DNA of 32,000 bases. It comes from Candidatus Micrarchaeum sp. (lineage in GTDB: Archaea > Micrarchaeota > Micrarchaeia > Micrarchaeales > Micrarchaeaceae). The stretch spans positions 957,839-989,838 of the forward strand of contig NZ_CP060530.1 in assembly GCF_016806735.1 (NCBI RefSeq). The letters run 5' to 3'. Shown here in pieces: positions 2,010 to 17,555 of the stretch. The notes beneath the pieces were generated by a model. It searched no databases. It was not told where the DNA came from and was given only the letters and a program-made list of their open reading frames with translations. Each line of letters begins with the position of its first letter. Position 1 is the stretch's first letter. The translations under genes and the position numbers were made by a program.

Positions 2010-2464
2010 TTGTCTATGTTATATCCAAGAGTGTTGGACAGGTCCTTAAGCGTTATGTAGCCTGCGTATATCTCCTTTGCGCCTTTGATCTTTGGCTTTA
2101 TGCGCTCCTTGGATTTGAGCGCTTCAGGCTCTCCCATGAAAACCCTGAGCTTCCTGAAGGCTTCTTTTCCGCGAGGCCTTCTGTACGGAAGCATTCCCCT
2201 GACTATGCGCTTGAACAGCATGTCAGGCCTCCTCGACCAGTACGGCGAGTGCTCGGGGTTTTCCTTCTCCTGAAGGTTAAGCCTTGTCCTGTACTTGGCG
2301 GCCATGGGCTTGCGCTTCCCGCTTATTATCGCCTTCTCCGCATTTACGACTGCTACGTCATTGCCCTCCAGCAGGTTCTTTGCTATCATGCTGGCTATCC
2401 TTCCCAGAACCTGCCCGTCGGCATCGTATACTAAACATTTCTCAATATCAAACCTTTCAGGCAT
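2006..2464 (-). CDS. rpl13: 50S ribosomal protein L13 (uL13)
   Basis: 152 aa with DADGQVLGRIAS...VVVNAEKAIISG and the RGMLP motif. Conserved L18e-L13-S9 order. Confidence 0.95.
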   Translation of the reverse strand: MPERFDIEKCLVYDADGQVLGRIASMIAKNLLEGNDVAVVNAEKAIISGKRKPMAAKYRTRLNLQEKENPEHSPYWSRRPDMLFKRIVRGMLPYRRPRGKEAFRKLRVFMGEPEALKSKERIKPKIKGAKEIYAGYITLKDLSNTLGYNIDK

Positions 2465-2475
2465 TTAGAGCACCA

Positions 2476-2838
2476 TCATATTATAATACGAACGTTTTTC
2501 TTGCTTACCATTTCCTTTATTGTTGAAGTGCTGCTCCCGGCTTTGCTTATCCTCTCCAGGGCGCTGCCGGAGAACTCCAGTGCTGCAATGTTCACCTTGT
2601 GGCTCAGCGAGCCTATGGAAAGGACCTTTCCCGGCACTATGACATTGTCGCCTTCCTTGGTGTACTTGTCTATCTTGTACAGGTTGACGCTGACGCGCCT
2701 CCTTTTCGGCACCGCAATGAGGCTGTAGAGCTTCTTTGCAACTGGCTTCGCATTCTCGCCCTTTGACATTTCGGAGAGCATGCTAATGGCATCGCGTATG
2801 TCCTTCCTTTCTGGAGTTATCTTCATGAATTTCACCAT
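2476..2838 (-). CDS. rpl18e: 50S ribosomal protein L18e (eL18)
   Basis: L18e-like core (RRRVSVNLYKIDKY...VPGKVLS.G.L.HKV.IAALEFS). The track ORF start at 2871 overlaps the tRNA-Leu, so the ATG at 2838 (or 2826) is preferred. Confidence 0.85.
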   Translation of the reverse strand: MVKFMKITPERKDIRDAISMLSEMSKGENAKPVAKKLYSLIAVPKRRRVSVNLYKIDKYTKEGDNVIVPGKVLSIGSLSHKVNIAALEFSGSALERISKAGSSTSTIKEMVSKKNVRIII

Positions 2839-2846
2839 GATTTTTA

Positions 2847-2954
2847 TGCGGGGGGTGAGATTTGAACTCACGCAGTCACTAAAGACACAGGAGTTCTAAG
2901 TTTTGTGCAAAACTCCTCAGTCCTGCGCATTTGGCCATGCTCTGCCACCCCCGC
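2847..2954 (-). tRNA. tRNA-Leu (anticodon GAG), class II, with 21-nt intron at the canonical 37/38 position
   Basis: The minus strand reads GCGGGGG-TG-GCA-GAGCATGGCCAAA-TGC-G-CAGGA-CTGAGG-[intron about 2894-2914]-C-TCCTG-16-nt variable arm-GTGAG-TTCAAAT-CTCAC-CCCCCGC-A. It has a perfect 7-bp acceptor stem, a canonical T arm, U33 and G37. Anticodon GAG is at 2918-2916. The mature length of 87 nt fits a long-variable-arm tRNA. Confidence 0.85.
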
Positions 2955-2959
2955 ATGGG

Positions 2960-3547
2960 TTAGAGCTTCTTAGCTACTTTAGAGACTTCCTTGATTCTTT
3001 CCTTTATTGTGTCGCAAGCCTTATTAATGATTTCTTTGGGTGGCATTTGGCCAAATGATTCAATATAAAAGTTGAACGAGTCGTCGCCAGTCGGTTCTAC
3101 GGCCACTAGCCCTGGCTGAAACTTGGCATGCTTTACTGCAGTCCCCATTCTGGCTTTGCCCTCGATCCTGATGCGCTGGCCGGTTCCGAGCTTTATTATC
3201 GGGATTCCTTCAGATGCAACTCTGACCTCTTTGTCTGTGCTCTGGAGATCCTTCGAATAAACGGTTATCGGGCCTGTTGCTTCTGCAGTAAAAAGGATCT
3301 CGTCTTCATCCTTGTATCCAGAAGAGGGAGTGATTATTGGCACCAGGCCTATCCTGTGCGCAATGTATTCATCGAACATAGGGCTTGTATTTTCGTAGAA
3401 CGTAACCGAGTCTATGGCAAAAGTCTTCACTGAGTTTATTGCGGCCCTCCTGAGCACGTTTGCATTGCTCTCCGTTATGCCGCTAATGCTGAACCTGAAA
3501 GCCTTTTCGTTGTTCTCCTGAACCTTTATATTCATATAGTCACGCAA
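2960..3547 (-). CDS. rpoD: DNA-directed RNA polymerase subunit D (Rpo3)
   Basis: 195 aa with NANVLRRAAINSV, MFDEYIAHRIGLVPI and GQRIRIEGKAR.GT..HAKF.P. The start may be the second ATG at 3535 (MNIKV). Confidence 0.9.
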   Translation of the reverse strand: MRDYMNIKVQENNEKAFRFSISGITESNANVLRRAAINSVKTFAIDSVTFYENTSPMFDEYIAHRIGLVPIITPSSGYKDEDEILFTAEATGPITVYSKDLQSTDKEVRVASEGIPIIKLGTGQRIRIEGKARMGTAVKHAKFQPGLVAVEPTGDDSFNFYIESFGQMPPKEIINKACDTIKERIKEVSKVAKKL

Positions 3548-3757
3548 TTTTTAGACAATGAGCATTAAAAATACGCATTAGCTCAAGCGCAAAGCCACAA
3601 ATGGCCTGTGAATAGTTATTACATACGAATATTTATAAATTTTCATTGGCGCACAGCAGAGCTGTTATTTGGAAACCAAGTCAAACCCGGCAGGGCAAAG
3701 GATAAAAGGGTTTGATACCGAATAGCTACAGGTTCAAATTGCAATGGCGCATGTTTT

Positions 3758-4417
3758 ATGGGAGAGGCTAGGCAGAAAGAGGCATACCGCATGACAACAG
3801 CGAACGGCACAATACCTGTGGCATTTTCGGAAATCCTTGGAAAGCTGCTCAAAGAGCAGGGCAGCAAAGCGAAGGTAGACCTTTCTTACAGGGAAAGGAG
3901 GCATATATCCAAGGTCAAGATGGACCAATACGAGGACGTAAAATATGTAAAGGTGGGCTCCAATGGAGAAACGGACTTCAAGGTGCCATTCAGCGAGAGG
4001 TACATAGCCGCTTTGGACATAACTTATTCGCTCATTGCCAGCCTTTACGACGTGAATTCTTCAAGGCTTGTCGCATTCAACGTGTTCGAGAATCCTGAAG
4101 CCTGCATAAAGGGCTTTTCTGCTTTCATCAGTAAAGCTAAAAGGGGAAACATTGAGGCCAGGCTAATAGGAATGCAGAACGGCCAGGATACCGCAATGCT
4201 GAATCAAATAGCTGATTTTATAAGCAAGCGGAGGATACCGCTGGTTGAAGCTGACCTTTTCGGGAACGAGGCTAGGCACATAGCCTTTGATTCGAAGCAG
4301 GGAATGAGCTTTACCGTGCTTGTAAACAACATAAACTACAGGCCCGGGGAGCTCGTAAGCAAGCTAACGATGGACCAGTTCAGGCGCTCACTCATAGAAG
4401 CTCCTTCTCAAAAATAG
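3758..4417 (+). CDS. CheD-like fold protein (apparently catalytically degenerate), function unknown
   Basis: From memory, residues about 60-205 resemble chemoreceptor glutamine deamidase CheD. VKVGSNGETDFKV compares with VKVGIADMKV, and RIPLVEADLFGNEARHIAFDSKQG compares with RIPIIAEDVGGHYGRTIEFDSATG. There is a 60-aa N-terminal extension. The assignment rests on pattern recall, not a search. Confidence 0.5.
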   Translation: MGEARQKEAYRMTTANGTIPVAFSEILGKLLKEQGSKAKVDLSYRERRHISKVKMDQYEDVKYVKVGSNGETDFKVPFSERYIAALDITYSLIASLYDVNSSRLVAFNVFENPEACIKGFSAFISKAKRGNIEARLIGMQNGQDTAMLNQIADFISKRRIPLVEADLFGNEARHIAFDSKQGMSFTVLVNNINYRPGELVSKLTMDQFRRSLIEAPSQK

Positions 4418-4934
4418 TCTCGTATGCGGCGCTGGATTTTCCAAGGATGCTTTTCTTGAATTCCATCCTATTTACAATGAAAAGCTCTGAGCCCTTCCAG
4501 CATTTGGATGAGAGCTCAGCCATCTTGTTAAGGCTTTTCGATTGGCCCCTAGCTATGCTGACATGAGGGACAAAAACCCTTTTGTCGATATCAAGCAATT
4601 CAGTTACATTGAGAAGCCCGGAATGCAGCCTTTCCTGTATTGATGCTGCATCCTCTGCGCCTTTTTCCAAGCCTACAAAAGCAACGCTGGACTTATTGCC
4701 GAAAGTGGATACGGGCCCGAGTTTTGCTTCAAAACTGCTTGCCTCAAAACTTTTCATTAAAGAAGAAACTGTATTGGCAGTGTCTTCACTTATATCGCCG
4801 AGAAACTCAAGCGTTATGTGCAAATTCTGCTCAGGTATCGGCTTGGCTCCGCACCTTATCGCCAAACCAGAAAGCTCAGCGTATAAAGATTTCCTTATTT
4901 GTTCTGGTATGCACAAAGCAATGAAAGCCCTCAT
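4392..4934 (-). CDS. thpR: RNA 2',3'-cyclic phosphodiesterase / 2'-5' RNA ligase family (2H phosphoesterase)
   Basis: Two H-x-T/S motifs (LHITLEFLG and PHVSIAR) at the spacing typical of LigT/ThpR. The internal ATG at 4934 (MRAFIAL) is preferred, with a TTTAAAG TATA-like box about 35 nt upstream. Confidence 0.8.
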   Translation of the reverse strand: MRAFIALCIPEQIRKSLYAELSGLAIRCGAKPIPEQNLHITLEFLGDISEDTANTVSSLMKSFEASSFEAKLGPVSTFGNKSSVAFVGLEKGAEDAASIQERLHSGLLNVTELLDIDKRVFVPHVSIARGQSKSLNKMAELSSKCWKGSELFIVNRMEFKKSILGKSSAAYETIFEKELL

Positions 4935-5159
4935 GCCAGCACCAAAGCACAATACGATAGGTATACGGAACTTTAAAGCGTTTCCGTTGGTGATAGAGAA
5001 GTATTGTTTTTCATTTAAAATATCAGAACAATTTCTCATTTTACAGTTTTATTCCCTGCATTCTGGTTGGTGTTGCAGCATTAGAAAAATCAAGATGCGA
5101 ATAGAAAACCACAAAACAAATATAAAGATATCTGTAGAAACACATATTCGTTTAGTGTA

Positions 5160-6788
5160 ATGATGAAACACAAATATATCGTTGTGACAGGTTCGTTGAT
5201 GAGCGGGCTTGGAAAAGGAATAGTCACCTCATCGATTTTGAAACTCTTGAAGCTCTACGGTGTCAAGTCTCTTCCTATAAAATTCGACGGATATTTGAAT
5301 TATGACTGCGGAACCATGAATCCCTTCAGGCACGGGGAAGTCTTTGTGCTCGATGACAAGGGAGAAGTTGACATGGATTTCGGAAATTATGAAAGATTCC
5401 TCAACGAAAGCGTCAGCTCCGAGCTGTCTATAACCGGAGGAAAACTTTTTTCCGAAGTCATAAGCAGGGAAAGAAGGGGCGAATATTTGGGCAGGGACGT
5501 CCAGATAATACCGCACATAACAGATTATTTGAAGAGCAGAATAAAGGATGTAGCAGAGCGAAAAAAGCTGGAGGTCCTTGTCATAGAGGTTGGGGGCACG
5601 GTAGGGGATATAGAAAACAGCTATTTTATAGAGGCAATGAGGCAGCTCTCATCCGAGGAGGATGTCACATTCATAAATCTAACATACGTGCCGGAGCTTG
5701 AAGGCGTAGGCGAGCAGAAAACCAAGCCGACGCAGATAGCGCTGAGGTCGCTCATGCAGATGGGCATACAGCCAAAATTCATAATATGCAGGTCGCAGAG
5801 GCCCCTGGAAGAATCCACAAGGGAGAAGATAGCCCTTTTCGCAAGCATAAAGCCGCAGAGGGTAATAGATGACAGCGAGATAAAGAATATATACGAGCTT
5901 CCTATAAAGCTCATGAGGCAGAATTTCGACAAAATGCTTCTTGAAGAGCTCGGGTTCGAAAACAGGAAGATGGACAAAAAGGGGCTGAAGTCGTGGAAGA
6001 ACTTCGTGAATTTCCTTAACGACGGAGTAAGAAATAGGGCCAGGGTTGCTGTAGTTGGAAAGTACGTTAAGCTAAGGGATTCGTATGCAAGCGTCAAGGA
6101 GGCCGTGACGCATGCTGCCTATGCCAATGACGCAAAGGTTGATTTGGACTGGATAGAATCCGAAACGCTTGAAGGCAAAAGCGGCAGCGAGATAAAGAAT
6201 ATCCTGGATTCTTACGACGGCATAATAGTACCAGGAGGCTTTGGCAAAAGAGGGATAGAAGGAATGATAAACGCCATAGAGTTTTCAAGGGAAAACGATA
6301 GGGCTTACCTTGGCTTATGCCTTGGGATGCAGCTCATGGCGATAGAATACGCACGCAACGTGTGCAAGCTTAAAAACGCAAACTCTTCGGAATTCGACCC
6401 AAAGACCAAGCATGAGATAATAGGATTGATGGAAGACCAGAAGAGCGTGAAGCTCAAAGGAGGCACGATGAGGCTGGGCGCATGGCCGGTCCAGATAAGC
6501 AAAGGAACGCTGGCTTACGATGCTTACGGGTCCCAGAAGGCAAGCGAAAGGCACAGGCACAGGTACGAATTCAACAACAAGTACAAGCAGCTTCTTTCGC
6601 GCAACGGCCTTGTCATAAGCGGAACATCGCCAGACAAGCGCATAGTTGAAATCATAGAATGGAGCTCCCGCTTGGGCATAGGAACGCAGGCTCATCCGGA
6701 GCTGAAATCGAGGCCCGAGGATCCGGCGCCACTTTTCAGGGCTTTCATGAAAGCCGCGGTAGAGCACAACAGAAAAGTTTCATCTTAG
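5160..6788 (+). CDS. pyrG: CTP synthase
   Basis: 542 aa. N-terminal synthetase domain (YIVVTGS..SGLGKG, DPYLN-like GYLNYDCGTMNP) and C-terminal GATase domain (LGLCLGMQ, HRHRYE). Confidence 0.97.
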   Translation: MMKHKYIVVTGSLMSGLGKGIVTSSILKLLKLYGVKSLPIKFDGYLNYDCGTMNPFRHGEVFVLDDKGEVDMDFGNYERFLNESVSSELSITGGKLFSEVISRERRGEYLGRDVQIIPHITDYLKSRIKDVAERKKLEVLVIEVGGTVGDIENSYFIEAMRQLSSEEDVTFINLTYVPELEGVGEQKTKPTQIALRSLMQMGIQPKFIICRSQRPLEESTREKIALFASIKPQRVIDDSEIKNIYELPIKLMRQNFDKMLLEELGFENRKMDKKGLKSWKNFVNFLNDGVRNRARVAVVGKYVKLRDSYASVKEAVTHAAYANDAKVDLDWIESETLEGKSGSEIKNILDSYDGIIVPGGFGKRGIEGMINAIEFSRENDRAYLGLCLGMQLMAIEYARNVCKLKNANSSEFDPKTKHEIIGLMEDQKSVKLKGGTMRLGAWPVQISKGTLAYDAYGSQKASERHRHRYEFNNKYKQLLSRNGLVISGTSPDKRIVEIIEWSSRLGIGTQAHPELKSRPEDPAPLFRAFMKAAVEHNRKVSS

Positions 6789-11575: not shown

Positions 11576-12223
11576 ATGAATCGCGTAAGAGTTATAGTTG
11601 ACCAGCGCGAAAGAAACGTCGAGCTTCTTGATTCGCTTTGTGATTTTGGAATAGAAGCGAGCATTGATACCCTGGACATAGGGGATTATCTGATATCTGA
11701 CCGGCTTTGCATAGAACGCAAGACCGTTCCCGATTTCGAAAAGTCGATAATCGACGGCAGGCTGTTCGACCAGATAGAGAGGATGAAAAAAGCCTATGAG
11801 CTACCGATAATAGTGCTTGAGGGAGACTCGTCGGAATTCAAGCTCAAGCACAACGTGATAAACGGAGCGATAATATCTGTATACATAAGGTACGGAATAC
11901 CCGTTATAACGTCCAACAGCCCGCAGGATACCGCTTCGATAATATTGACCATGGCCAAACAGGAGCAGAACGGCCTGCGCGAGCCGACGCGGAAAAATGG
12001 CAGGAGGGCATTCTCAGATGCCGAGTATATGGAAAACGTAATTGCGAATGTTCCAGGGATAGGGCTTAAGCTCGCAAGGCTTCTGCTAAAACATTTTGGA
12101 AGCATAGAGGCGATATCCTGCGCCGATGTCAAGGAGCTAAGAAAAGTCGACAAAATAGGCGAAAAAAAGGCCGAGAGCATACTCAGGATACTCAACGGAA
12201 AATATGGGGAATCAGAGCCTTGA
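11576..12223 (+). CDS. xpf: XPF/ERCC4-family structure-specific nuclease, short form (nuclease plus HhH2, no helicase domain)
   Basis: Has the GDYLISDRLCIERKTVPDF signature (GDx(n)ERKx3D) and C-terminal tandem helix-hairpin-helix motifs (VPGIGLKLARLLL...KVDKIGEKKAESI). Confidence 0.85.
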   Translation: MNRVRVIVDQRERNVELLDSLCDFGIEASIDTLDIGDYLISDRLCIERKTVPDFEKSIIDGRLFDQIERMKKAYELPIIVLEGDSSEFKLKHNVINGAIISVYIRYGIPVITSNSPQDTASIILTMAKQEQNGLREPTRKNGRRAFSDAEYMENVIANVPGIGLKLARLLLKHFGSIEAISCADVKELRKVDKIGEKKAESILRILNGKYGESEP

Positions 12224-12637
12224 CAGTACCATCTTCTCCAATTCTTTTTCAAGCTTATGCCTGCTCATTGGCTTTGGATTGAACGTTGATGCCTTCAGCG
12301 TCGAGGATATCTTTCCATAGAGTTTTTTTGAGTTTGATATTACAAGGAAATCTTCGCCGGCTTTCGGGCTGAGCGCTTTTATCGCTGCGCCTATCTGATC
12401 GGTACCCGCAATAAACAGCAACAGTTCCACCCCGATGCTTTTCGCTATATTTCTTTTCTCCTCGAAGCAGGATGCGGCGTTCATATAGGCAGCTTTTATT
12501 ATTTCCAAGCTCGTTTTTTCGTTTATGACTGTGAATTCCACGAAGCTGTGCCCTTCGGATACCGGCTTTAGATGCGGATCGTAGGCCTTTGCCTTTTTTA
12601 TTATGAGAGAATTGCTTTCTTTTATGATTCTTTCCAT
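12212..12637 (-). CDS. cgi121: KEOPS complex subunit Cgi121
   Basis: 141 aa. IAKSIGVELLLFIAGTDQIGAAIKAL...FLVISN and the C-terminal LEKMVLSRL match the recalled archaeal Cgi121 pattern (IAKS...EILVRASGQRQIHEAIKIIG). Confidence 0.65.
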   Translation of the reverse strand: MERIIKESNSLIIKKAKAYDPHLKPVSEGHSFVEFTVINEKTSLEIIKAAYMNAASCFEEKRNIAKSIGVELLLFIAGTDQIGAAIKALSPKAGEDFLVISNSKKLYGKISSTLKASTFNPKPMSRHKLEKELEKMVLSRL

Positions 12638-12745
12638 GTGATCTATTTTCTTAATGTTGAGAAATTATTAAAGCTTGATTAAAATCATCTTGTTTGCCTT
12701 TTTATAAAAAGCATCGCAATGCTTGCACTAACCGAAAACCAAAGG

Positions 12746-12792
12746 CAAACAAAATCAGAATGTCATCGGAGAAAAGCTTGCTAAGTTGAGCT
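12746..12792. repeat. direct repeat copy A (distal duplicate of the 23S 3' terminal-helix strand plus trailer)
   Basis: 47/47 nt identical to 14295-14341 (caaacaaaatcagaatgtcatcggagaaaagcttgctaagttgagct). The next 26 nt are 14/26 identical, and the differences are mostly transitions. Confidence 0.95.
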
Positions 12793-12855
12793 CTGGCAAC
12801 AGGATAATATAAGGCAGGGAACAAAGCATGGATATGCATCCTTCGGCCTTTCGTA

Positions 12856-14115
12856 TCATTTTGATAAAATCCAATTTATAGCATTTACGAACTCCAGTTT
12901 TATTCCGCTGTTTTCTTTAATATGGGAATCCCCCATTGTTATTATTAGGGCTTTTTTTAAGCCAAGAGCTTTTGCGGCTGCGATGGATCCTGCAACTTCC
13001 CTATCCATGGTTTTGTCCTCTTTTATATAGTATGAAGCCTGAAATATCCCCTCAACGCTGTTGCCATTCCTTATTATAAAATCCGCTTCATGCCCTTCTT
13101 TGTCCTTGAAATATGATATTTCACTGCCCTGCTTCAGGCGCCTCCTTAGCTCAAGGTACACAAGCGTTTCGAACGTTATCCCCAGATCCTCCCTGCCTGT
13201 AATCCCATGGTAAAAGCCAGTGTCTCCGGCATACACCTTCCGTGGATACTGTTTTATTGCCTTTATGCTTTTAGAAAATATTTGGGAAAAGAAGAACAAG
13301 TATGCAGTCTGCGAATAACGTTCCAGCCTGAGAAATTTTTCCTTTCCAGCTTTATAACCAAGACCGCTTATGAAGTTCATGCACTTCGAAGCAGAAAAAT
13401 AACTGGATTGCAAAAGATATCTTGCAAACGTATCGACTAGGCTTATCTCCTCCGAACTGGCTTCGGCTACGTCGAGACCTACTATATCAAAGAAATACGA
13501 GCTTATAATCCTAATCTTGTCTATGCTGCCATCGACAGAAGCCACTTCAGGAAAGCCACCGTAGAGCAGGTATTCCTTGAACGCTTTCTCAAGAACCCCT
13601 TTTCCTGCAGTTGTCTTTTCAATGTGCGTTCCTCTGAAAGCGAGATATTCCTTGAAAGATAGCGGATATAATTCAAAATCAAGTATCCGGCCCCTCAAGG
13701 GCTTGTTTGGCATGGAGAAGCTCGCTATTGACGACGACACTATTAGCTTGAGCTTGCCCTTCAGCTGTTCGTGCACCCTCGAGAGCCAACCCTCCCAGCC
13801 CCTGATAGACGTTATTTCGTCGAGGAGCATGTAACCGTCTTCTCCAAACCATTTTAGCAGGGCGTCCAGAGGGTTTTCGAAGCTCTTTAGTCTGTCGTCT
13901 TCCATATTTATGTAGCATACCTTCTCGTTGCGCTTTGCAAGCTCCTGATAGAGCAGCATCATTACGCTCGATTTTCCGGAACGCCTTATGCCTGTCAGAC
14001 CGACTATTTTTATGTCTGAGTATTTTATCATTTTTCCAAAATCCATATCCCTTGGCTTTAGCCTTTTTGATTTTGAGTAGGCATTCCATTCCTCGAATAT
14101 ATCTTCAATTTCCAT
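12856..14115 (-). CDS. AAA+ ATPase, COG1373 / DUF4143 family
   Basis: 419 aa. Walker A is GIRRSGKSS and Walker B is MLLDEIT. The C-terminal EADFII...IFQASY region lies where the family's restriction-endonuclease-like domain sits. Confidence 0.85.
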   Translation of the reverse strand: MEIEDIFEEWNAYSKSKRLKPRDMDFGKMIKYSDIKIVGLTGIRRSGKSSVMMLLYQELAKRNEKVCYINMEDDRLKSFENPLDALLKWFGEDGYMLLDEITSIRGWEGWLSRVHEQLKGKLKLIVSSSIASFSMPNKPLRGRILDFELYPLSFKEYLAFRGTHIEKTTAGKGVLEKAFKEYLLYGGFPEVASVDGSIDKIRIISSYFFDIVGLDVAEASSEEISLVDTFARYLLQSSYFSASKCMNFISGLGYKAGKEKFLRLERYSQTAYLFFFSQIFSKSIKAIKQYPRKVYAGDTGFYHGITGREDLGITFETLVYLELRRRLKQGSEISYFKDKEGHEADFIIRNGNSVEGIFQASYYIKEDKTMDREVAGSIAAAKALGLKKALIITMGDSHIKENSGIKLEFVNAINWILSK

Positions 14116-14136
14116 ATATTGTTTTTTTACAGAACA

Positions 14137-14146
14137 ATATATATAA
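14137..14146 (-). promoter_or_regulatory. TATA box of the ATPase gene
   Basis: The minus strand reads AAAATTATATATATTG, centred about 27 nt upstream of the ATG at 14115. It is flanked by the ACAGAA/TTCTGT inverted repeat. Confidence 0.45.
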
Positions 14147-14294
14147 TTTTCTGTTCTACAGAAAAACGATTATGCAGCAGAGGGTTTGTGCTGAACCCGT
14201 TTCATGACACTTGGTAAACAAAGCCGGAAGGCGCAGGGGCGTTTTATGTCGAGAATCGATTTCAGGGTTTGAGCGGCACAGCTGGATTATGAGA

Positions 14295-14341
14295 CAAACA
14301 AAATCAGAATGTCATCGGAGAAAAGCTTGCTAAGTTGAGCT
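14295..14341. repeat. direct repeat copy B (authentic 23S 3' terminal-helix strand plus trailer)
   Basis: Identical to 12746-12792 and contiguous with the 23S body. Positions 14317-14333 pair with 17168-17184. Confidence 0.95.
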
Positions 14342-17184
14342 TTAGTAACGGAATGTTCACAGGTCGCAAAAGCTCCCTGCTTACGCACCCGTCCTATCAA
14401 AGTCGTCTATTGCGACCGCTCCAGTGCCTCGTTTCGGGTTTGGCTTCGTCCTTAGATGCTTTCAGGACTTATCCATTGGGCGCGTAGCTACCCGGCAATG
14501 CTTACACAACCGGTACACCAGTGGCGCCGATCCCTCGTTCCTCTCGTATTAAAGGGGTCTTATCCTCCGGCACTAACACCTCCAGTAGATACTACCGTAC
14601 TGTCTCGCGACGTACTGAACGCAGCTCATGTGAGTTTTTAATGGGCGTACAGCCCAACCCTTGGCGGCTTGTACACTGCCAGGATAACTCAAGCCCATAT
14701 CGATGTATCAATGCGCCAGGTCGATGCGGACTCTCACCGGCGACGAATCGGTTACCTCTAGAGTAACTTGTTTGACAGCTTGGAGCCCCATTAAAAGAGC
14801 TACCAACGTTCGTTAAGCCCCTGTTTCCAGTCTGCGTGTCACGCTTTTCGGCACACAGTCAGCCCTGCATTTGCCTTTATGCTTAACAGCGAGTTCCCAA
14901 CTCGCCTAAGCAGAGCATTGGTCGCTTTCGTTTCCTTATCGAAAGTAACCGTCCAGTCTAACTACCCACCTGCAGCTGTTCCCTCTCGGGTTAGCTGTAC
15001 GGCAAGCTAAGAGTGGTGTTACATTGTCGCTCCACGACCGCCGCAGCGATCGCTTCGACGCTCCCACTTACGCTATGCATAGCAAGCCGGACAACAACAA
15101 CAGGCTGTAGTCAAGCTTCATAGAGACTTCATTTCCCACTGGAGGATCGCGGCATATTCACCGCGCAGTGAGTTCACCGGATCCCAGGTTGGGACAGTGG
15201 AACAATCGTTACGCCATTCATGCAAGTCACCTATTAAGTGACGAGGTATTACGCTACCTCAAGAGAGTCAGAGTTACTCCCGCTCTTTGCCAGCGCTTAC
15301 TCCCCTTGAAAAGGGCATTCACGTACTGGCGGTGAGCAGGCGTCACCCACTGTACTAAGCCTTACGGCTTTGCGGTGAGTTGTGTTTTTGATAAACAGTC
15401 GTTGTTCCCTTGTCAGTGACATCTGCGCATACTATACGCAGACATGGTTTGTTGAAAACTTACACCACGATTTTGCCGAATTCCCTAACCTGGGTTATTC
15501 CGTCACACCTTGGCCTTTTAAGCCAGCAACACTTGTACTAGTTCTAGGTACGGACTAACGCGATCGTTGCAGATTCCCTTTTCACGGGCTCAAGAAATCA
15601 GTCCAACAGTTCATTTAGCTGCTTCTCCTCATAACGAGACTCTGCAGCCCTTTGCACTTTCTTACGGACCTATCCCCAAGCGTCAGAAATCTGCCTTGTG
15701 TTGCCACGCCTACGCGTTAGGGGCTGGAATATTAACCAGCTTCCCTTTTGAGGCAAGGTGATTGGCCTGCCTCTTAGGATCGCCTAACTCTCCGCTGACG
15801 AGCGTTGCGAAGAAAACCGTGTGCTTACGGTGTATGGGATTCTCACCCATATTTGCTGTTACTAACACCAGGATATTCTCTGCAGCATAGTCCATATGTC
15901 CTTCCGGACATACTTCGTGCCATGCCGCACGCCCCCTTACCAGTGCTTATCGCACTCTAGGGTCTCGGTACCTAATTTAGCCCCGTATATTTTCGGCAAG
16001 GTATGCCTCAACTGGTACGCTATTACGCGTTTTTTGAAGGATGGCTGCTTCTGAGCCTACCTCCCAGCTGTCTACGGCATTCCCCACCTTTAACACACTC
16101 AATTAGGATTTGGGGACCTTAACCCTAGTCACTATCTTTGTAGTCTCGCGGTGCTAGCTTACCCAACACCGCCGACTCCTGGGGTCTACACAGCGCATGC
16201 ATTCGGAGTTTGACGAGCGAGGGAGGCCTTTCGACCCCGTACCCGCTAATCGGTAGCTCTACCGCATGTGCAAGCTCGCCCAGAGCTATCCTAAAGATAC
16301 TTCAGAGGGGACCCGCTATTGCCAAGCTCGATAGGTATATCGCCGCTACCCGCGCCTCACCCAACAGGACATGCCATGACAGGTTGCGGACCTCCACCAG
16401 GCGTTAACCTAGCTTCATCCTGGGCGCGCGTAGTTCGCATTGGCTTCGGGTCGTATAAATGTGGCTCTGGCATTTTCATACCATGCGCCTCGAATCTGCG
16501 CGCTATCGCTTTCGCTTCGCCTTTCGACTCGCCACACCTATACACTCCCTGGCTCTTGCTTCAAGAAGAATGATAGGACACTGTTCGCCATTGCCTCGCT
16601 GATACCTTTCGGTACTTCGCTTCGGCATGGTACATTCCTTTCGTGCCCTACCTGCATGTAACCACCTAGTTTCAGATCTTTTCAATCCCACGCGTGTGGG
16701 TTCTTTTCAGCTTTCGCTCGCGCTACTTGTTCGCTATCGGTCTATAGCCAATATTTAGGGTTGGGGTTTAATGCCCCCGTATTCACTCCGCATACTCAAG
16801 CGGATTTACTCGTCTGCAGCAAGTCCATTGCACTACGTCTACGAGGCTGTCACTCTCTTTGGCCGCGCTTTCCAACGCGTTCGACTCATGTTCTGGATCA
16901 ACACTGCGCCACATCTCCACACCTTTTGCAAAGCGGGATTCAGCACGCCCTCTGCGGTTTTCGTTCGCATTACTTACCGCATCGCATTAAGCTTTCTTTT
17001 CCTGCGGGTACTAAGATATTTCAGTTCCCCGCGTATGCATGCCTCTCGGCACGATTCGGCAATCCCGGGTTCAAAGCCTGACTTGCGGCTACCCCGGGCT
17101 TATCGCAGCTTGCCACGGCCTTCATCGCTGCTATAGCCAAGCCATCCTCTAGGTGGCGTAAAAAATTTTAGCAAGCTCTTCTCC
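14317..17184 (-). rRNA. rrl: 23S (LSU) ribosomal RNA, divergent; ends approximate (plus or minus about 20 nt)
   Basis: The minus strand carries LSU landmarks. CAGCGAUGAAGGCCGUGGCAAGCUGCGAUA lies near the 5' end (17101-17130). The sarcin-ricin loop AAUACGAGAGGAAC is at 14537-14550. The A-loop region AAGGGUUGGGCUGUACGCCCAUUAAA is present, as are GAGACAGUACGG and the 3' region UUGAUAGGACGGGUGCGUAAGC. The ends are bracketed by a 17-bp helix, GGAGAAGAGCUUGCUAA/UUAGCAAGCUUUUCUCC. All plus-strand and minus-strand ORFs in this span are treated as spurious. Confidence 0.92.
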
Positions 17185-17360: not shown

Positions 17361-17555
17361 CTACACGCGCGGAGAAAGCGGAAGCGCAGCCAGAGAGCAT
17401 ATGCCAGAGACATTGTCTATTTTTGCTTGGTTGAAGTACTGCAGAACTTGTGTTTTGTTTGGGTTCTGTATAAATGTGCTGCATGCGAAGAAGTAATTGA
17501 TTAAAAGAAAAATTATAAGCGTAGGAACCAGTATCAACAAAATATTCGCTTTCAT
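17361..17555 (-). CDS. small hypothetical membrane protein
   Basis: 64-aa ORF with one N-terminal TM helix. Its start lies 3 nt after the stop of the upstream gene, in a low-GC segment. Coding status is uncertain. Confidence 0.3.
   Translation of the reverse strand: MKANILLILVPTLIIFLLINYFFACSTFIQNPNKTQVLQYFNQAKIDNVSGICSLAALPLSPRV

Follow-up and report, generated by a model that had tools for sequence, protein, structure and literature searches.

Probable homology-driven entry of a 1.5-kb defence-candidate cassette beside the 23S rRNA gene of Candidatus Micrarchaeum

Why should the 3′ end of a 23S rRNA gene occur a second time, unchanged over 47 nt, on the far side of a neighbouring ATPase gene? 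The question arises in a 32,000-nt stretch of DNA from Candidatus Micrarchaeum sp., analysed here at its full length and called the window. Direct comparison bore out the repeat reported in the initial annotation: positions 12746–12792 and 14295–14341 are identical at 47/47 nt, in direct orientation, their starts 1549 nt apart. No longer exact repeat exists within the 32-kb window, and 20 shuffles of the sequence gave repeats of 13–19 nt. An 18-nt core searched with up to three mismatches matched only at the two copies, hereafter A and B (0.07 matches expected).

Chance similarity or an assembly artefact is a scarcely credible origin for a repeat so much longer than those among the shuffles. 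At least 14 independent assemblies (10 of the same species and four of a sister species) contain the two copies with this spacing, and a contig of 989,838 nt has the identical ATPase protein in its record (a protein record alone, the repeats having been read elsewhere). The Ca. M. harzensis chromosome is closed and was built from PacBio and Illumina data (PMC8975820). No point in support of such an origin was found. A search across genomes, as the initial annotation had advised, also ruled out a dispersed multi-copy repeat: a 25-nt segment of the 47-mer, compared with 185,579 species-representative genomes, is found on two contigs only, twice on one of them (1549 nt apart) and once on the other.

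The repeat and the rRNA gene are laid out as follows:

14323..17173, minus strand: archaeal 23S rRNA gene, standing alone (positions 1–2987 of Rfam model LSU_rRNA_archaea, 2274.7 bits)
17168..17184, minus strand: 5′ strand of the terminal or processing helix, GGAGAAGAGCTTGCTAA (inverted repeats I8 and I9, pattern search, cofold)
14295..14341, minus strand: 47-mer copy B, the authentic 3′ end of 23S together with trailer (Rfam boundary, direct comparison)
14268..14294, minus strand: trailer X, which follows copy B (local alignment to relative L011)
12793..12848, minus strand: left arm of the distal copy D′, degenerate but homologous to the final hairpin region of 23S
12746..12792, minus strand: 47-mer copy A, which forms the intact core of D′ (direct comparison; divergence switch at its 3′ edge)

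No 16S, 5S or tRNA genes were found in the 32-kb window. Because the Rfam match spans 17173 to 14323, copy B consists of the last 19 nt of the 23S model and a 28-nt trailer ending in an oligo-T run; the model boundary thus agrees with the earlier view of copy B as the genuine gene end. Relatives L011, L016 and L033 have the sequence of copy B unchanged at their 23S ends. The helix proposed between 14317–14333 and 17168–17184 is real, its 17 positions comprising 16 complementary ones and one G–T (that is, G·U) mismatch; the 5′ strand at 17168–17184 is complementary to both copies of the 47-mer (inverted repeats I8/I9, 17 nt, 94% complementary). An orthologue of trailer X follows the single 23S end of L011, which has no ATPase gene (23/27 positions identical; local alignment score 34 versus 15.0 ± 2.4 for shuffled sequences, with 0/300 reaching 34).

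Judged by alignment, the distal 47-mer is the still-identical core of a degenerate copy (D′), ∼100 nt long, of the 23S 3′ end and trailer. The 56 nt upstream of copy A show 57% identity to 23S with gaps allowed, a value reached by 2/500 shuffled controls (47.8 ± 3.3%), and an nhmmer model of the repeat matches 12848–12747 over its full length (E = 2.4e-25). The initial annotation had counted matches at 14 of 26 positions beyond the 47-mer, with differences that were mostly transitions. The resemblance to 23S stands, with 13/26 matches in place of 14; the differences divide into 7 transitions and 6 transversions over the 26 nt, and the first 13 nt hold 8 matches, 5 transitions and 0 transversions.

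An old duplication in which only the 47-mer stayed unchanged, as had been suggested, fits a left arm at 57% identity next to a core at 47/47. If the core had decayed like the left arm, 47 matches out of 47 would have a chance of ∼3e-12. Copy A′ of relative L015 (the one copy read there) carries 2 substitutions in the 47-mer, so that maintenance of identity is not absolute. Strain-level SNPs are uninformative on constraint at copy A, since 10 assemblies show zero variation over the whole cassette region. The host lineages with the cassette differ by only a few percent, while the left arm is near saturation; D′ would therefore have been old already when these lineages split.

Between the two copies lie the following elements:

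14116..14170, minus strand: ATPase promoter region, with a TATA-like box flanked by TTCTGT/ACAGAA palindromes (read from the sequence)
12856..14115, minus strand: gene for a 419-aa ATPase, AAA_14 + DUF4143 (PD-(D/E)XK-type) (Pfam, PADLOC)

A single ORF, running from 14115 to 12856 with AAA_14 and DUF4143 domains in Pfam, accounts for the one gene originally placed between the copies. The TATA box placed ∼27 nt upstream of it corresponds to an A/T-rich TATA-like box ∼23–34 nt upstream of the ATG, and the promoter motif is shared upstream of ATPases in six contigs with unrelated contexts (L025, L026, L028, L030, L038 and L040). The protein matches PADLOC model PDLC04787 (PDC-S01) at full length (E = 1.1e-68, residues 22–418) and has the AAA_14 + DUF4143 architecture; by this likeness it is a member of the candidate defence family PDC-S01. 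The gene is intact and, as the 47 synonymous and 18 non-synonymous codon differences from the L015 ATPase indicate, under purifying selection.

PDC-S01 is reported to be a common family, with enrichment in Archaea and a tendency to horizontal transfer (PMC12988326). It was nominated by ‘guilt-by-embedding’; antiviral tests cover some of the candidates so nominated and most await validation, and we found no antiviral test of PDC-S01 in that work (PMC12988326). The present locus differs from the published description of the family in its duplicated gene ends, which are not described there (PMC12988326).

The far side of the locus is bounded by a conserved host gene:

12638..12745, minus strand: spacer Y with the cgi121 promoter, lineage-specific, fast-evolving and to the right of the junction
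12212..12637, minus strand: cgi121, encoding a KEOPS subunit (NCBIfam NF011465, E = 1.1e-12)

The gene cgi121 is syntenic with ERCC4 in all relatives. The ATPase gene and D′ are carried by the window species (10 assemblies), its sister species (L033–36) and L015. Four relatives (L011, L016, L023 and L037) lack the ATPase and have a single 23S end, the repeat HMM having detected no extra copy of it in any of the four; these are the empty sites that the initial annotation had proposed to look for. On this distribution of sequences the cassette is an insertion polymorphism. A metagenome scan with a 21-nt core added one real relative (L023, with an empty site) and one chance match. In L015, a LamG gene is driven by the same promoter as cgi121 in the window. 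Homologies noted by eye between Y and the L011 spacer, between Y and outgroup trailers and between X and L016 did not rise above shuffled sequences and were dropped.

Comparison of the window with L033 places a recombination breakpoint within this interval. On the cassette side there are 0/242 non-coding differences, with 0/94 in the two 47-mers, versus 11/108 right after copy A, seven of which fall in the first 32 nt (Fisher p ∼1e-6 for the contrast between the cassette side and the sequence beyond copy A). Divergence changes from 0 to ∼22% exactly at the 3′ edge of copy A. In the same pair of genomes identity is 98.5% in the ATPase, 100% in the trailer and promoter, and 90.6–97.3% in neighbouring core genes. 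The breakpoint read from this switch maps to the 3′ edge of copy A. The 47-mer there is best understood as a recombination junction, at which a defence-candidate cassette that moves horizontally probably also has its working homology anchor.

The explanation that we favour, with moderate confidence, is that a horizontally acquired cassette of 1.5 kb sits between the 23S gene and cgi121, that D′ is its distal boundary and that its entry was driven by homology. The cassette would consist of its own promoter and one PDC-S01-type ATPase-nuclease gene, closed by D′. It would enter, or be exchanged, by recombination between its own copy of the 23S end and the resident 23S end, with a left crossover anywhere in conserved 23S; the 23S gene end would be duplicated and the rRNA left intact. 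The Rfam match indeed spans the full model length beside the insertion. Since both arms derive from a highly conserved gene, the cassette would carry portable homology. Its spread may be limited to cassettes with a core matching recipient 23S ends, or the core may be repeatedly reset by conversion; either would keep 47 nt perfect while the flanks decay.

The initial annotation had likened this architecture to the traces of site-specific integration into a stable-RNA gene; the repeat flanks, the intact 23S and the empty sites all agree with recombination at the 3′ end of such a gene. This recombination could have been site-specific: the 47-mers would then be attL and attR, left at the 23S 3′ end by an integrative element (plasmid or virus) with a tyrosine integrase that has since been lost by deletion (‘gene capture’) or is supplied in trans, the cassette being cis-mobilizable or integron-like. 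We regard this origin as doubtful, though it has much in common with known elements: a direct repeat of a stable-RNA 3′ end, a reconstituted gene end and empty sites in relatives. Tandem integration and loss of the integrase are both documented for archaeal elements (PMC8371274). On the other side, no integrase-like gene was found among the larger ORFs of the 32-kb window compared with Pfam or in the contig gene tables, in agreement with the earlier statement that none is present, and there is no IntI or Phage_integrase match near 23S. We detected no inverted repeats (seeds of at least 6 nt) in or around either copy of the 47-mer that could be binding sites around the core. The archaeal tyrosine recombinase review of 2021 is silent on rRNA genes, the word ‘rRNA’ occurring in it 0 times (PMC8371274), and a limited literature search returned no account of integration into 23S ends.

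Searches of IMG/VR gave no relevant contig for the core of the 47-mer (the one match, in a coding region, was due to chance) and nothing related to the ATPase; no donor element, excised circle or recombinase was found. The simplest form of the attL/attR origin, in which the crossover lies in the 47-mer and the empty site resembles that of L011, misfits the order of the flanks and was retained only on the assumption of an L011-like donor. In L011 the single 47-mer is followed by 27 nt that match the flank of copy B, not that of copy A; a crossover in the 47-mer therefore requires either that donor or secondary loss within L011. The divergence break at the 3′ edge of copy A, on the other hand, is as expected if a crossover in the core left the original host flank behind the distal copy.

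Homologous ATPase cassettes at other targets bear on the choice between homology and a dedicated enzyme. In L025 the cassette is bracketed by a duplicated LamG 3′ end of 157 nt (spacing 1543), and in L026 by a 73-nt 3′ fragment of tRNA-Pro. No flanking duplication was found in four of the eight contexts of ATPase homologues (L028, L030, L038 and L040). The tRNA-Pro fragment resembles a textbook tRNA att remnant, which speaks for site-specific integration; against it, the three unrelated duplicates (23S, LamG and tRNA-Pro) would need three specificities, and the duplicated blocks are long, variable (∼81–157 nt) and degenerate. Since the same ATPase family is found at unrelated duplicated ends, a homology-driven process (RadA-type and integrase-independent) is most likely rather than one sequence-specific integrase; a trans-acting site-specific recombinase is possible.

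The same cases weigh on another account, which we consider improbable: a long target-site duplication (∼100–160 nt) created in a single insertion by a transposition-like staggered cut or by template switching in replication, with copy A decaying and the 47-mer kept identical by later gene conversion from the functional copy. Compared with L011, the insert starts after trailer X, with the 23S end and X before it and the copy behind it, as a target duplication would have it; the spacings of the window (1549) and L025 (1543) are similar, and no recombinase in cis would be needed. The LamG duplicates, however, differ at 5, 7 and 24 sites by codon position (chi-square p = 1e-4), with frame and stop codon kept and 44/52 amino acids identical. 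As the differences lie mainly in third codon positions, these duplicates are functional gene ends that have diverged, rather than a target-site duplication in decay. The lengths also differ from case to case (∼81, ∼100–130 and 157 nt), the cassette has no terminal inverted repeats, and the left arm of D′, near saturation, is older than the split of the host lineages.

A further Micrarchaeota contig (L021) carries, besides the genuine 23S end, three strong copies identified by the repeat HMM:

2290–2372, 3942–4039 and 5438–5530, all co-oriented: extra copies of the 23S end (E = 1e-16 to 7e-25)

At least three cassettes are present, with a cargo of a 202-aa and a 251-aa gene of unknown function, ParE-like/PIN genes (toxin-antitoxin-like) and a DUF4143 ATPase of 28% identity. 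Between the 202-aa and 251-aa genes a degenerate remnant of the repeat was seen by eye only (∼1140–1190), and the HMM did not detect this fifth repeat. The extra copies are 72–87% identical to each other and 64–68% identical to the resident 23S; that they are nearer each other than the resident gene is a further point against target duplication. Copy c2 is a mosaic, its left arm being c3-like and its core and right arm 23S-like. The co-oriented tandem accretion in this array, and the minimal core AGCYCAACTTAGCAAGCT common to all copies, would suit site-specific integration, against which stands the lack of a recombinase or integrase fragment in the array (larger ORFs compared with Pfam, and gene tables). 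The suspicion of an ATPase C-terminal relic inside the L021 repeats gave way to a simpler account, in which the ORF runs into the left arm of the repeat.

These sequences identify the interval between 23S and cgi121 as a recurrent cassette site in related Micrarchaeota, each cassette ending in a copy of the 23S end; generality is thinly sampled, as the core is found on only two further species-representative contigs and the array comes from one low-coverage MAG contig (JAJZZO010000005.1, ∼3.9x). We tentatively raise the possibility that the Micrarchaeota 23S 3′ end is an integrase-free, integron-like anchor for defence and toxin-antitoxin cassettes that carry a mimic of the rRNA end. The ATPase-nuclease might then promote its own uptake by cutting empty sites in a homing-like manner.

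The array also bears on whether copy A is kept as an RNA element. It might be an alternative 3′ strand that pairs with the 23S 5′ leader, the resulting stem looping out 23S and the ATPase mRNA for processing or circularisation, or a terminator or 3′-end signal of the ATPase mRNA. Copy A does retain the complete 17-nt complement of the leader and the oligo-T run, and the helix-strand substitutions in L015 A′ and L021 c2 fall opposite G, exchanging G·U and G–C, so that pairing would be kept if L015 and L021 share the 5′ strand of the window; the probability that both substitutions fall in this way by chance is estimated at ∼0.3. We nevertheless hold such a role to be very improbable. Two of the three extra L021 copies (c2′ and c3) lost the outer half of the helix strand (7–9 nt), and the ATPase has a conserved promoter of its own. 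In archaeal termination an oligo-T run should limit read-through, and copy B ends in the same run. Cofolding gave a continuous 17-bp leader–trailer helix with either copy and no evident bulge-helix-bulge motif. Finally, the LamG and tRNA-Pro cases share the architecture without an rRNA leader to pair with.

Set beside known systems, the homology-driven cassette resembles archaeal elements integrated at tRNA 3′ ends in its stable-RNA 3′-end repeats, rebuilt gene end, empty sites and tandem accretion. It differs in that the target is 23S, the cargo is one 1.26-kb gene without an integrase or fragment of one, the distal copy is a long mimic, degenerate except for its perfect core of 47 nt, and the cargo family is found at unrelated targets. 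She et al. reportedly described ‘gene capture’ by integrase-less remnants of integrative elements in archaea in 2001. With integrons (attI and ORF–attC units recombined by IntI), the L021 array shares unidirectional short cassettes, each followed by a related repeat, one fixed anchor and cargo of defence or toxin-antitoxin type. Here, in contrast, there is no IntI, the repeats are copies of the 3′ end of the anchor gene and not attC-like imperfect palindromes, the ATPase cassettes have their own promoters, and the window holds a single cassette.

In Streptococcus, cis-mobilizable elements that accumulate next to ICEs by site-specific accretion are flanked by att sites, have no recombination module and occupy a conserved gene's 3′ end. 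These elements are bacterial and integrase-defined, have a short fixed att core and are mobilised only with help. The Micrarchaeum cassette likewise lacks a recombination module and lies at the 3′ end of a conserved gene, but no helper element is known for it. Campbell-type insertion-duplication offers a likeness in the homologous segment on both sides, the mosaic copies, the crossover in the best-conserved block and the absence of a dedicated recombinase; it is mainly a laboratory or transformation phenomenon, whereas in the present case it would recur in nature and give rise to arrays at a DPANN rRNA end. A transposon with target-site duplication differs in three respects, as the cassette has no terminal inverted repeats, the duplicate length varies and divergence in L025 is of the coding type.

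DPANN archaea have genomes of ∼1 Mb, a single set of rRNA genes and few recognised mobile elements; to our knowledge, CRISPR and classical mobile elements are largely absent from those with reduced genomes. Even so, compact defence candidates of a single gene, PDC-S01 for example, are enriched in the same archaea (PMC12988326). The Micrarchaeum locus suggests a concrete route by which such candidates may arrive and be exchanged, namely as small cassettes, each closed by a copy of a conserved gene 3′ end, whose insertion leaves the target gene (23S rRNA here, tRNA-Pro and LamG elsewhere) undisrupted. An rRNA gene end as a cassette hotspot is not featured in the review of archaeal integration (PMC8371274). 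The proposal is directly testable in Ca. Micrarchaeum harzensis A_DKE, which is available in co-culture with a closed genome and public RNA-seq data. If entry is integrase-independent, it would represent a simple and general mechanism of horizontal gene acquisition. If the 23S end does act as an integron-like anchor, related cells could gain cassettes by ordinary recombination and without harm to their only 23S gene, and DPANN archaea with reduced genomes would have a new route for the shuffling of defence genes.

The 47-nt perfect direct repeat claimed in the initial annotation was borne out by the sequence. Positions 12746-12792 (copy A, distal) and 14295-14341 (copy B) are identical at 47/47 nt with a spacing of 1549; this is the longest exact repeat of the window, while shuffled windows reach only 13-19 nt. 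One gene lies between the copies, as had been stated, with a TATA-like box directly 5′ of it.

17173->14323, minus strand: archaeal 23S rRNA gene (Rfam LSU_rRNA_archaea, 2274.7 bits)
14116-14170: ATPase promoter, TATA-like box flanked by TTCTGT/ACAGAA palindromes
14115->12856, minus strand: ATPase, 419 aa, AAA_14 and DUF4143 (domain match)

Rfam and tRNA searches detected no 16S, 5S or tRNA genes in the window. Copy B is indeed the 23S 3′ end plus trailer: its 19 nt inside the Rfam model are the final ones, 28 nt lie beyond, and an oligo-T run ends it. The proposed 17-bp helix with the 5′ flank (14317-14333/17168-17184) has 16 of 17 positions paired, the sole mismatch being G-T (G.U). The oligo-T tail of copy A also has a pairing partner further downstream, in a 15-nt inverted repeat with a 39-nt loop and 93% complementarity (12687-12701/12741-12755) that the related lineage L015 lacks.

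The exact ATPase protein (recorded as Micr_01035, Candidatus Micrarchaeum sp.) occurs on at least 24 contigs. Both 47-mers are present at unchanged spacing in 10/10 fetched loci (97.5-100% identical), and sister-species loci (L033-L036; core genes 91-97% identical) have the architecture of the window. For Ca. Micrarchaeum harzensis A_DKE a closed chromosome was obtained from PacBio and Illumina data (PMC8975820). In species-representative genomes a 25-nt part of the 47-mer matched only two contigs: twice, 1549 nt apart, on one, and once on another Micrarchaeota MAG. We therefore rejected both an assembly artefact, given the constant spacing in 10 loci and the sister species, and the dispersed multi-copy repeat against which a genome-wide search had been suggested. 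The repeat is real and biologically meaningful.

An old duplication in which only the 47-mer stayed identical had been proposed, and the flank of copy A agrees with it. The 56 nt upstream of copy A are 57% identical to the matching 23S region in a gapped alignment (shuffles, 47.8 +/- 3.3; reached by 2/500), and a profile from all repeat copies gave a full-length match at 12848-12747 (E = 2.4e-25). These results show copy A to be the core of a ~100-nt degenerate duplicate (D′) comprising 23S 3′-end and trailer sequence, which begins a few bases past the ATPase stop codon. If the core had decayed at the left-arm rate, the computed probability of 47/47 identity would be ~3e-12; a block of identity with such sharp limits thus calls for a specific explanation: crossing-over, gene conversion or selection.

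Homologues of cgi121 and ERCC4, which lie downstream, led to the relatives.

Gene order downstream of the 23S rRNA gene
Window, L033-L036: 23S, ATPase, D′, cgi121
L015: ATPase (94% identical in nt), D′ (47-mer with 2 substitutions), LamG, cgi121
L011-L014: 23S end, LamG, cgi121
L016-L019: 23S end, cgi121
L023, L037: 23S end, cgi121

The ATPase-less lineages (last three rows) supply the empty site that the initial annotation had suggested seeking: they carry a single 23S end, and the repeat profile found no second copy there. The nearest ATPase relatives outside the cluster are at most 62% identical, their hosts being other DPANN and acidophile archaea. The ATPase with D′ is therefore an acquired cassette. 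The LamG-domain gene, located before cgi121 in L015 (1583-2452, after D′) and L011 (1063-1983, after the 23S end), is missing in the window, where LamG promoter-like sequence (12638-12700) now precedes cgi121; this suggests a clean LamG deletion in the window lineage.

Comparison with the sister-species locus L033 located a breakpoint.

Window versus L033
Neighbouring core genes: 90.6-97.3% identical
ATPase: 98.5% identical
23S end to ATPase start, 207 nt: 100% identical
Non-coding cassette-side positions: 0/242 differences
Two 47-mers: 0/94 differences
108 nt directly after copy A: 11 differences, 7 within the first 32 nt

The contrast between 0/242 and 11/108 (Fisher p ~1e-6) places a change in ancestry or divergence exactly where copy A ends on its 3′ side, which would be expected if the 47-mer block were a recombination resolution site. 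The spacer after copy A (12638-12745) would be host sequence. The trailer after copy B (14268-14294), identical to the L011 23S trailer at 23/27 positions, may have arrived with the cassette from an L011-related donor; alternatively, L011 could have lost the cassette.

On another Micrarchaeota contig, L021 (coverage ~3.9x per its title), an array of genes in one orientation separates the 23S end from cgi121-ERCC4. The array encodes two proteins without a known family (202 aa and 251 aa), a protein resembling ParE (weak match, E = 0.004), a PIN protein and a DUF4143 ATPase distinct from that of the window (28% identity). The genes for the 251-aa protein, the PIN protein and the ATPase each have a strong 23S-end copy behind them; a further, degenerate remnant behind the 202-aa gene was noticed on visual inspection only. 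The left arms of the extra copies are 72-87% identical mutually versus 64-68% to the resident 23S gene, and copy c2 is a mosaic (left arm like copy c3, core and right arm like 23S). The extra copies are thus paralogues travelling or recombining with cassettes rather than fresh duplicates of the resident gene.

The same ATPase family was found at other targets. In L025, a Micrarchaeaceae MAG, a 62%-identical ATPase lies between a LamG 3′ end and its duplicate (157 nt, 77% identical, spacing 1543). The 36 differences are distributed 5/7/24 by codon position (p = 1e-4), frame and stop codon are retained, and the peptides are identical at 44/52 positions. Such divergence rules out a neutrally decaying target-site duplication; each copy evolved as the end of a functional gene, in separate genomes, which points to recombination with an incoming homologue. 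AbiEii and DUF2204/DUF6036 genes (2827-4936) adjoin this cassette, making the locus a small defence island next to tRNA-Glu and LamG. In L026, the DNA directly behind a 57%-identical ATPase repeats a 3′ fragment (73 nt, 94.5% identical) of the tRNA-Pro that lies upstream; an unrelated small TIR element has inserted between the tRNA gene and the ATPase. This 1.76-kb element (2131-3924) adjoins tRNA-Pro and has 31-nt terminal inverted repeats (81% complementary), a ~13-14-nt direct repeat and two small ORFs, among which neither transposase nor Cas1 was found; its target and duplication length recall casposons. Four other contexts of ATPase homologues showed no flanking duplication. That one cargo family occurs with three unrelated duplicated targets (23S, LamG, tRNA-Pro) speaks against a single integrase with fixed sequence specificity.

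The palindromic TATA promoter is common to all ATPase homologues compared (L025, 1290-1348; L026, 3945-4000; L028, L030, L038, L040) and looks like a conserved operator moving with the gene. Relative to L015 the ATPase has 47 synonymous and 18 non-synonymous codon changes, indicative of purifying selection. It matches full length the PADLOC candidate defence family PDC-S01, reported to be very common, enriched in Archaea and often transferred; single-gene defence candidates of this kind are overrepresented in DPANN archaea, and most of them, apparently including PDC-S01, lack experimental validation (PMC12988326).

The remainder of the 32-kb window is core genome (ribosomal proteins, EF-2, RNA polymerase subunit, CTP synthase, glycosyltransferases). 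On the 5′ side of 23S, synteny breaks exactly at the promoter (17366-17400, just upstream of the TATA box GTATTTAAAG), and the genes beyond are unrelated between strains (L003, L004/L005, L007, L033): restriction-modification and NB-ARC, transposases and HicA, or an 887-aa protein. The 23S gene thus borders a variable island on this side too. One strain has a Cas1 gene ~9 kb upstream of 23S (L001, 1-446), where others have ribosomal protein genes. The 5′ 2.3 kb of the L003 23S gene (window 14839-17169) differs at 224 positions (~10%), its 3′ 500 nt and everything downstream being identical to the window; either this 23S gene contains a recombination breakpoint or the metagenome contig is chimeric.

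Copy A could instead be a functional RNA element, an alternative strand pairing with the 23S leader, since either copy can form the 17-bp helix. Yet no bulge-helix-bulge motif is evident in the cofold, the outer half of the helix strand is lost in 2/3 extra L021 copies, the ATPase is provided with a separate promoter, an oligo-T run closes copy B, and the tRNA-Pro and LamG cases share the architecture with no rRNA leader to pair; these points speak, if not firmly, against an RNA role.

Of the attL/attR-like interpretation, the layout of integration into a stable-RNA 3′ end stands and the integrase does not: none was found in the 32-kb window, as the initial annotation had noted, nor were recombinase core-site inverted repeats in or near the 47-mers. 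The site thus differs from integrase-borne integrative elements and works in the manner of 'captured' or cis-mobilizable remnants that have no integrase; the L021 array shares only its layout with an integron, attC being absent. In the reading that we favour, with moderate confidence, the 47-mer is the junction of a defence-candidate cassette that moves horizontally and sits at a hotspot formed by the 23S end, and it probably serves this cassette as a working anchor of homology. A 2021 review of archaeal tyrosine recombinases never mentions rRNA targets (PMC8371274), and we found no account of integration at the 3′ end of a 23S gene in the literature searched.
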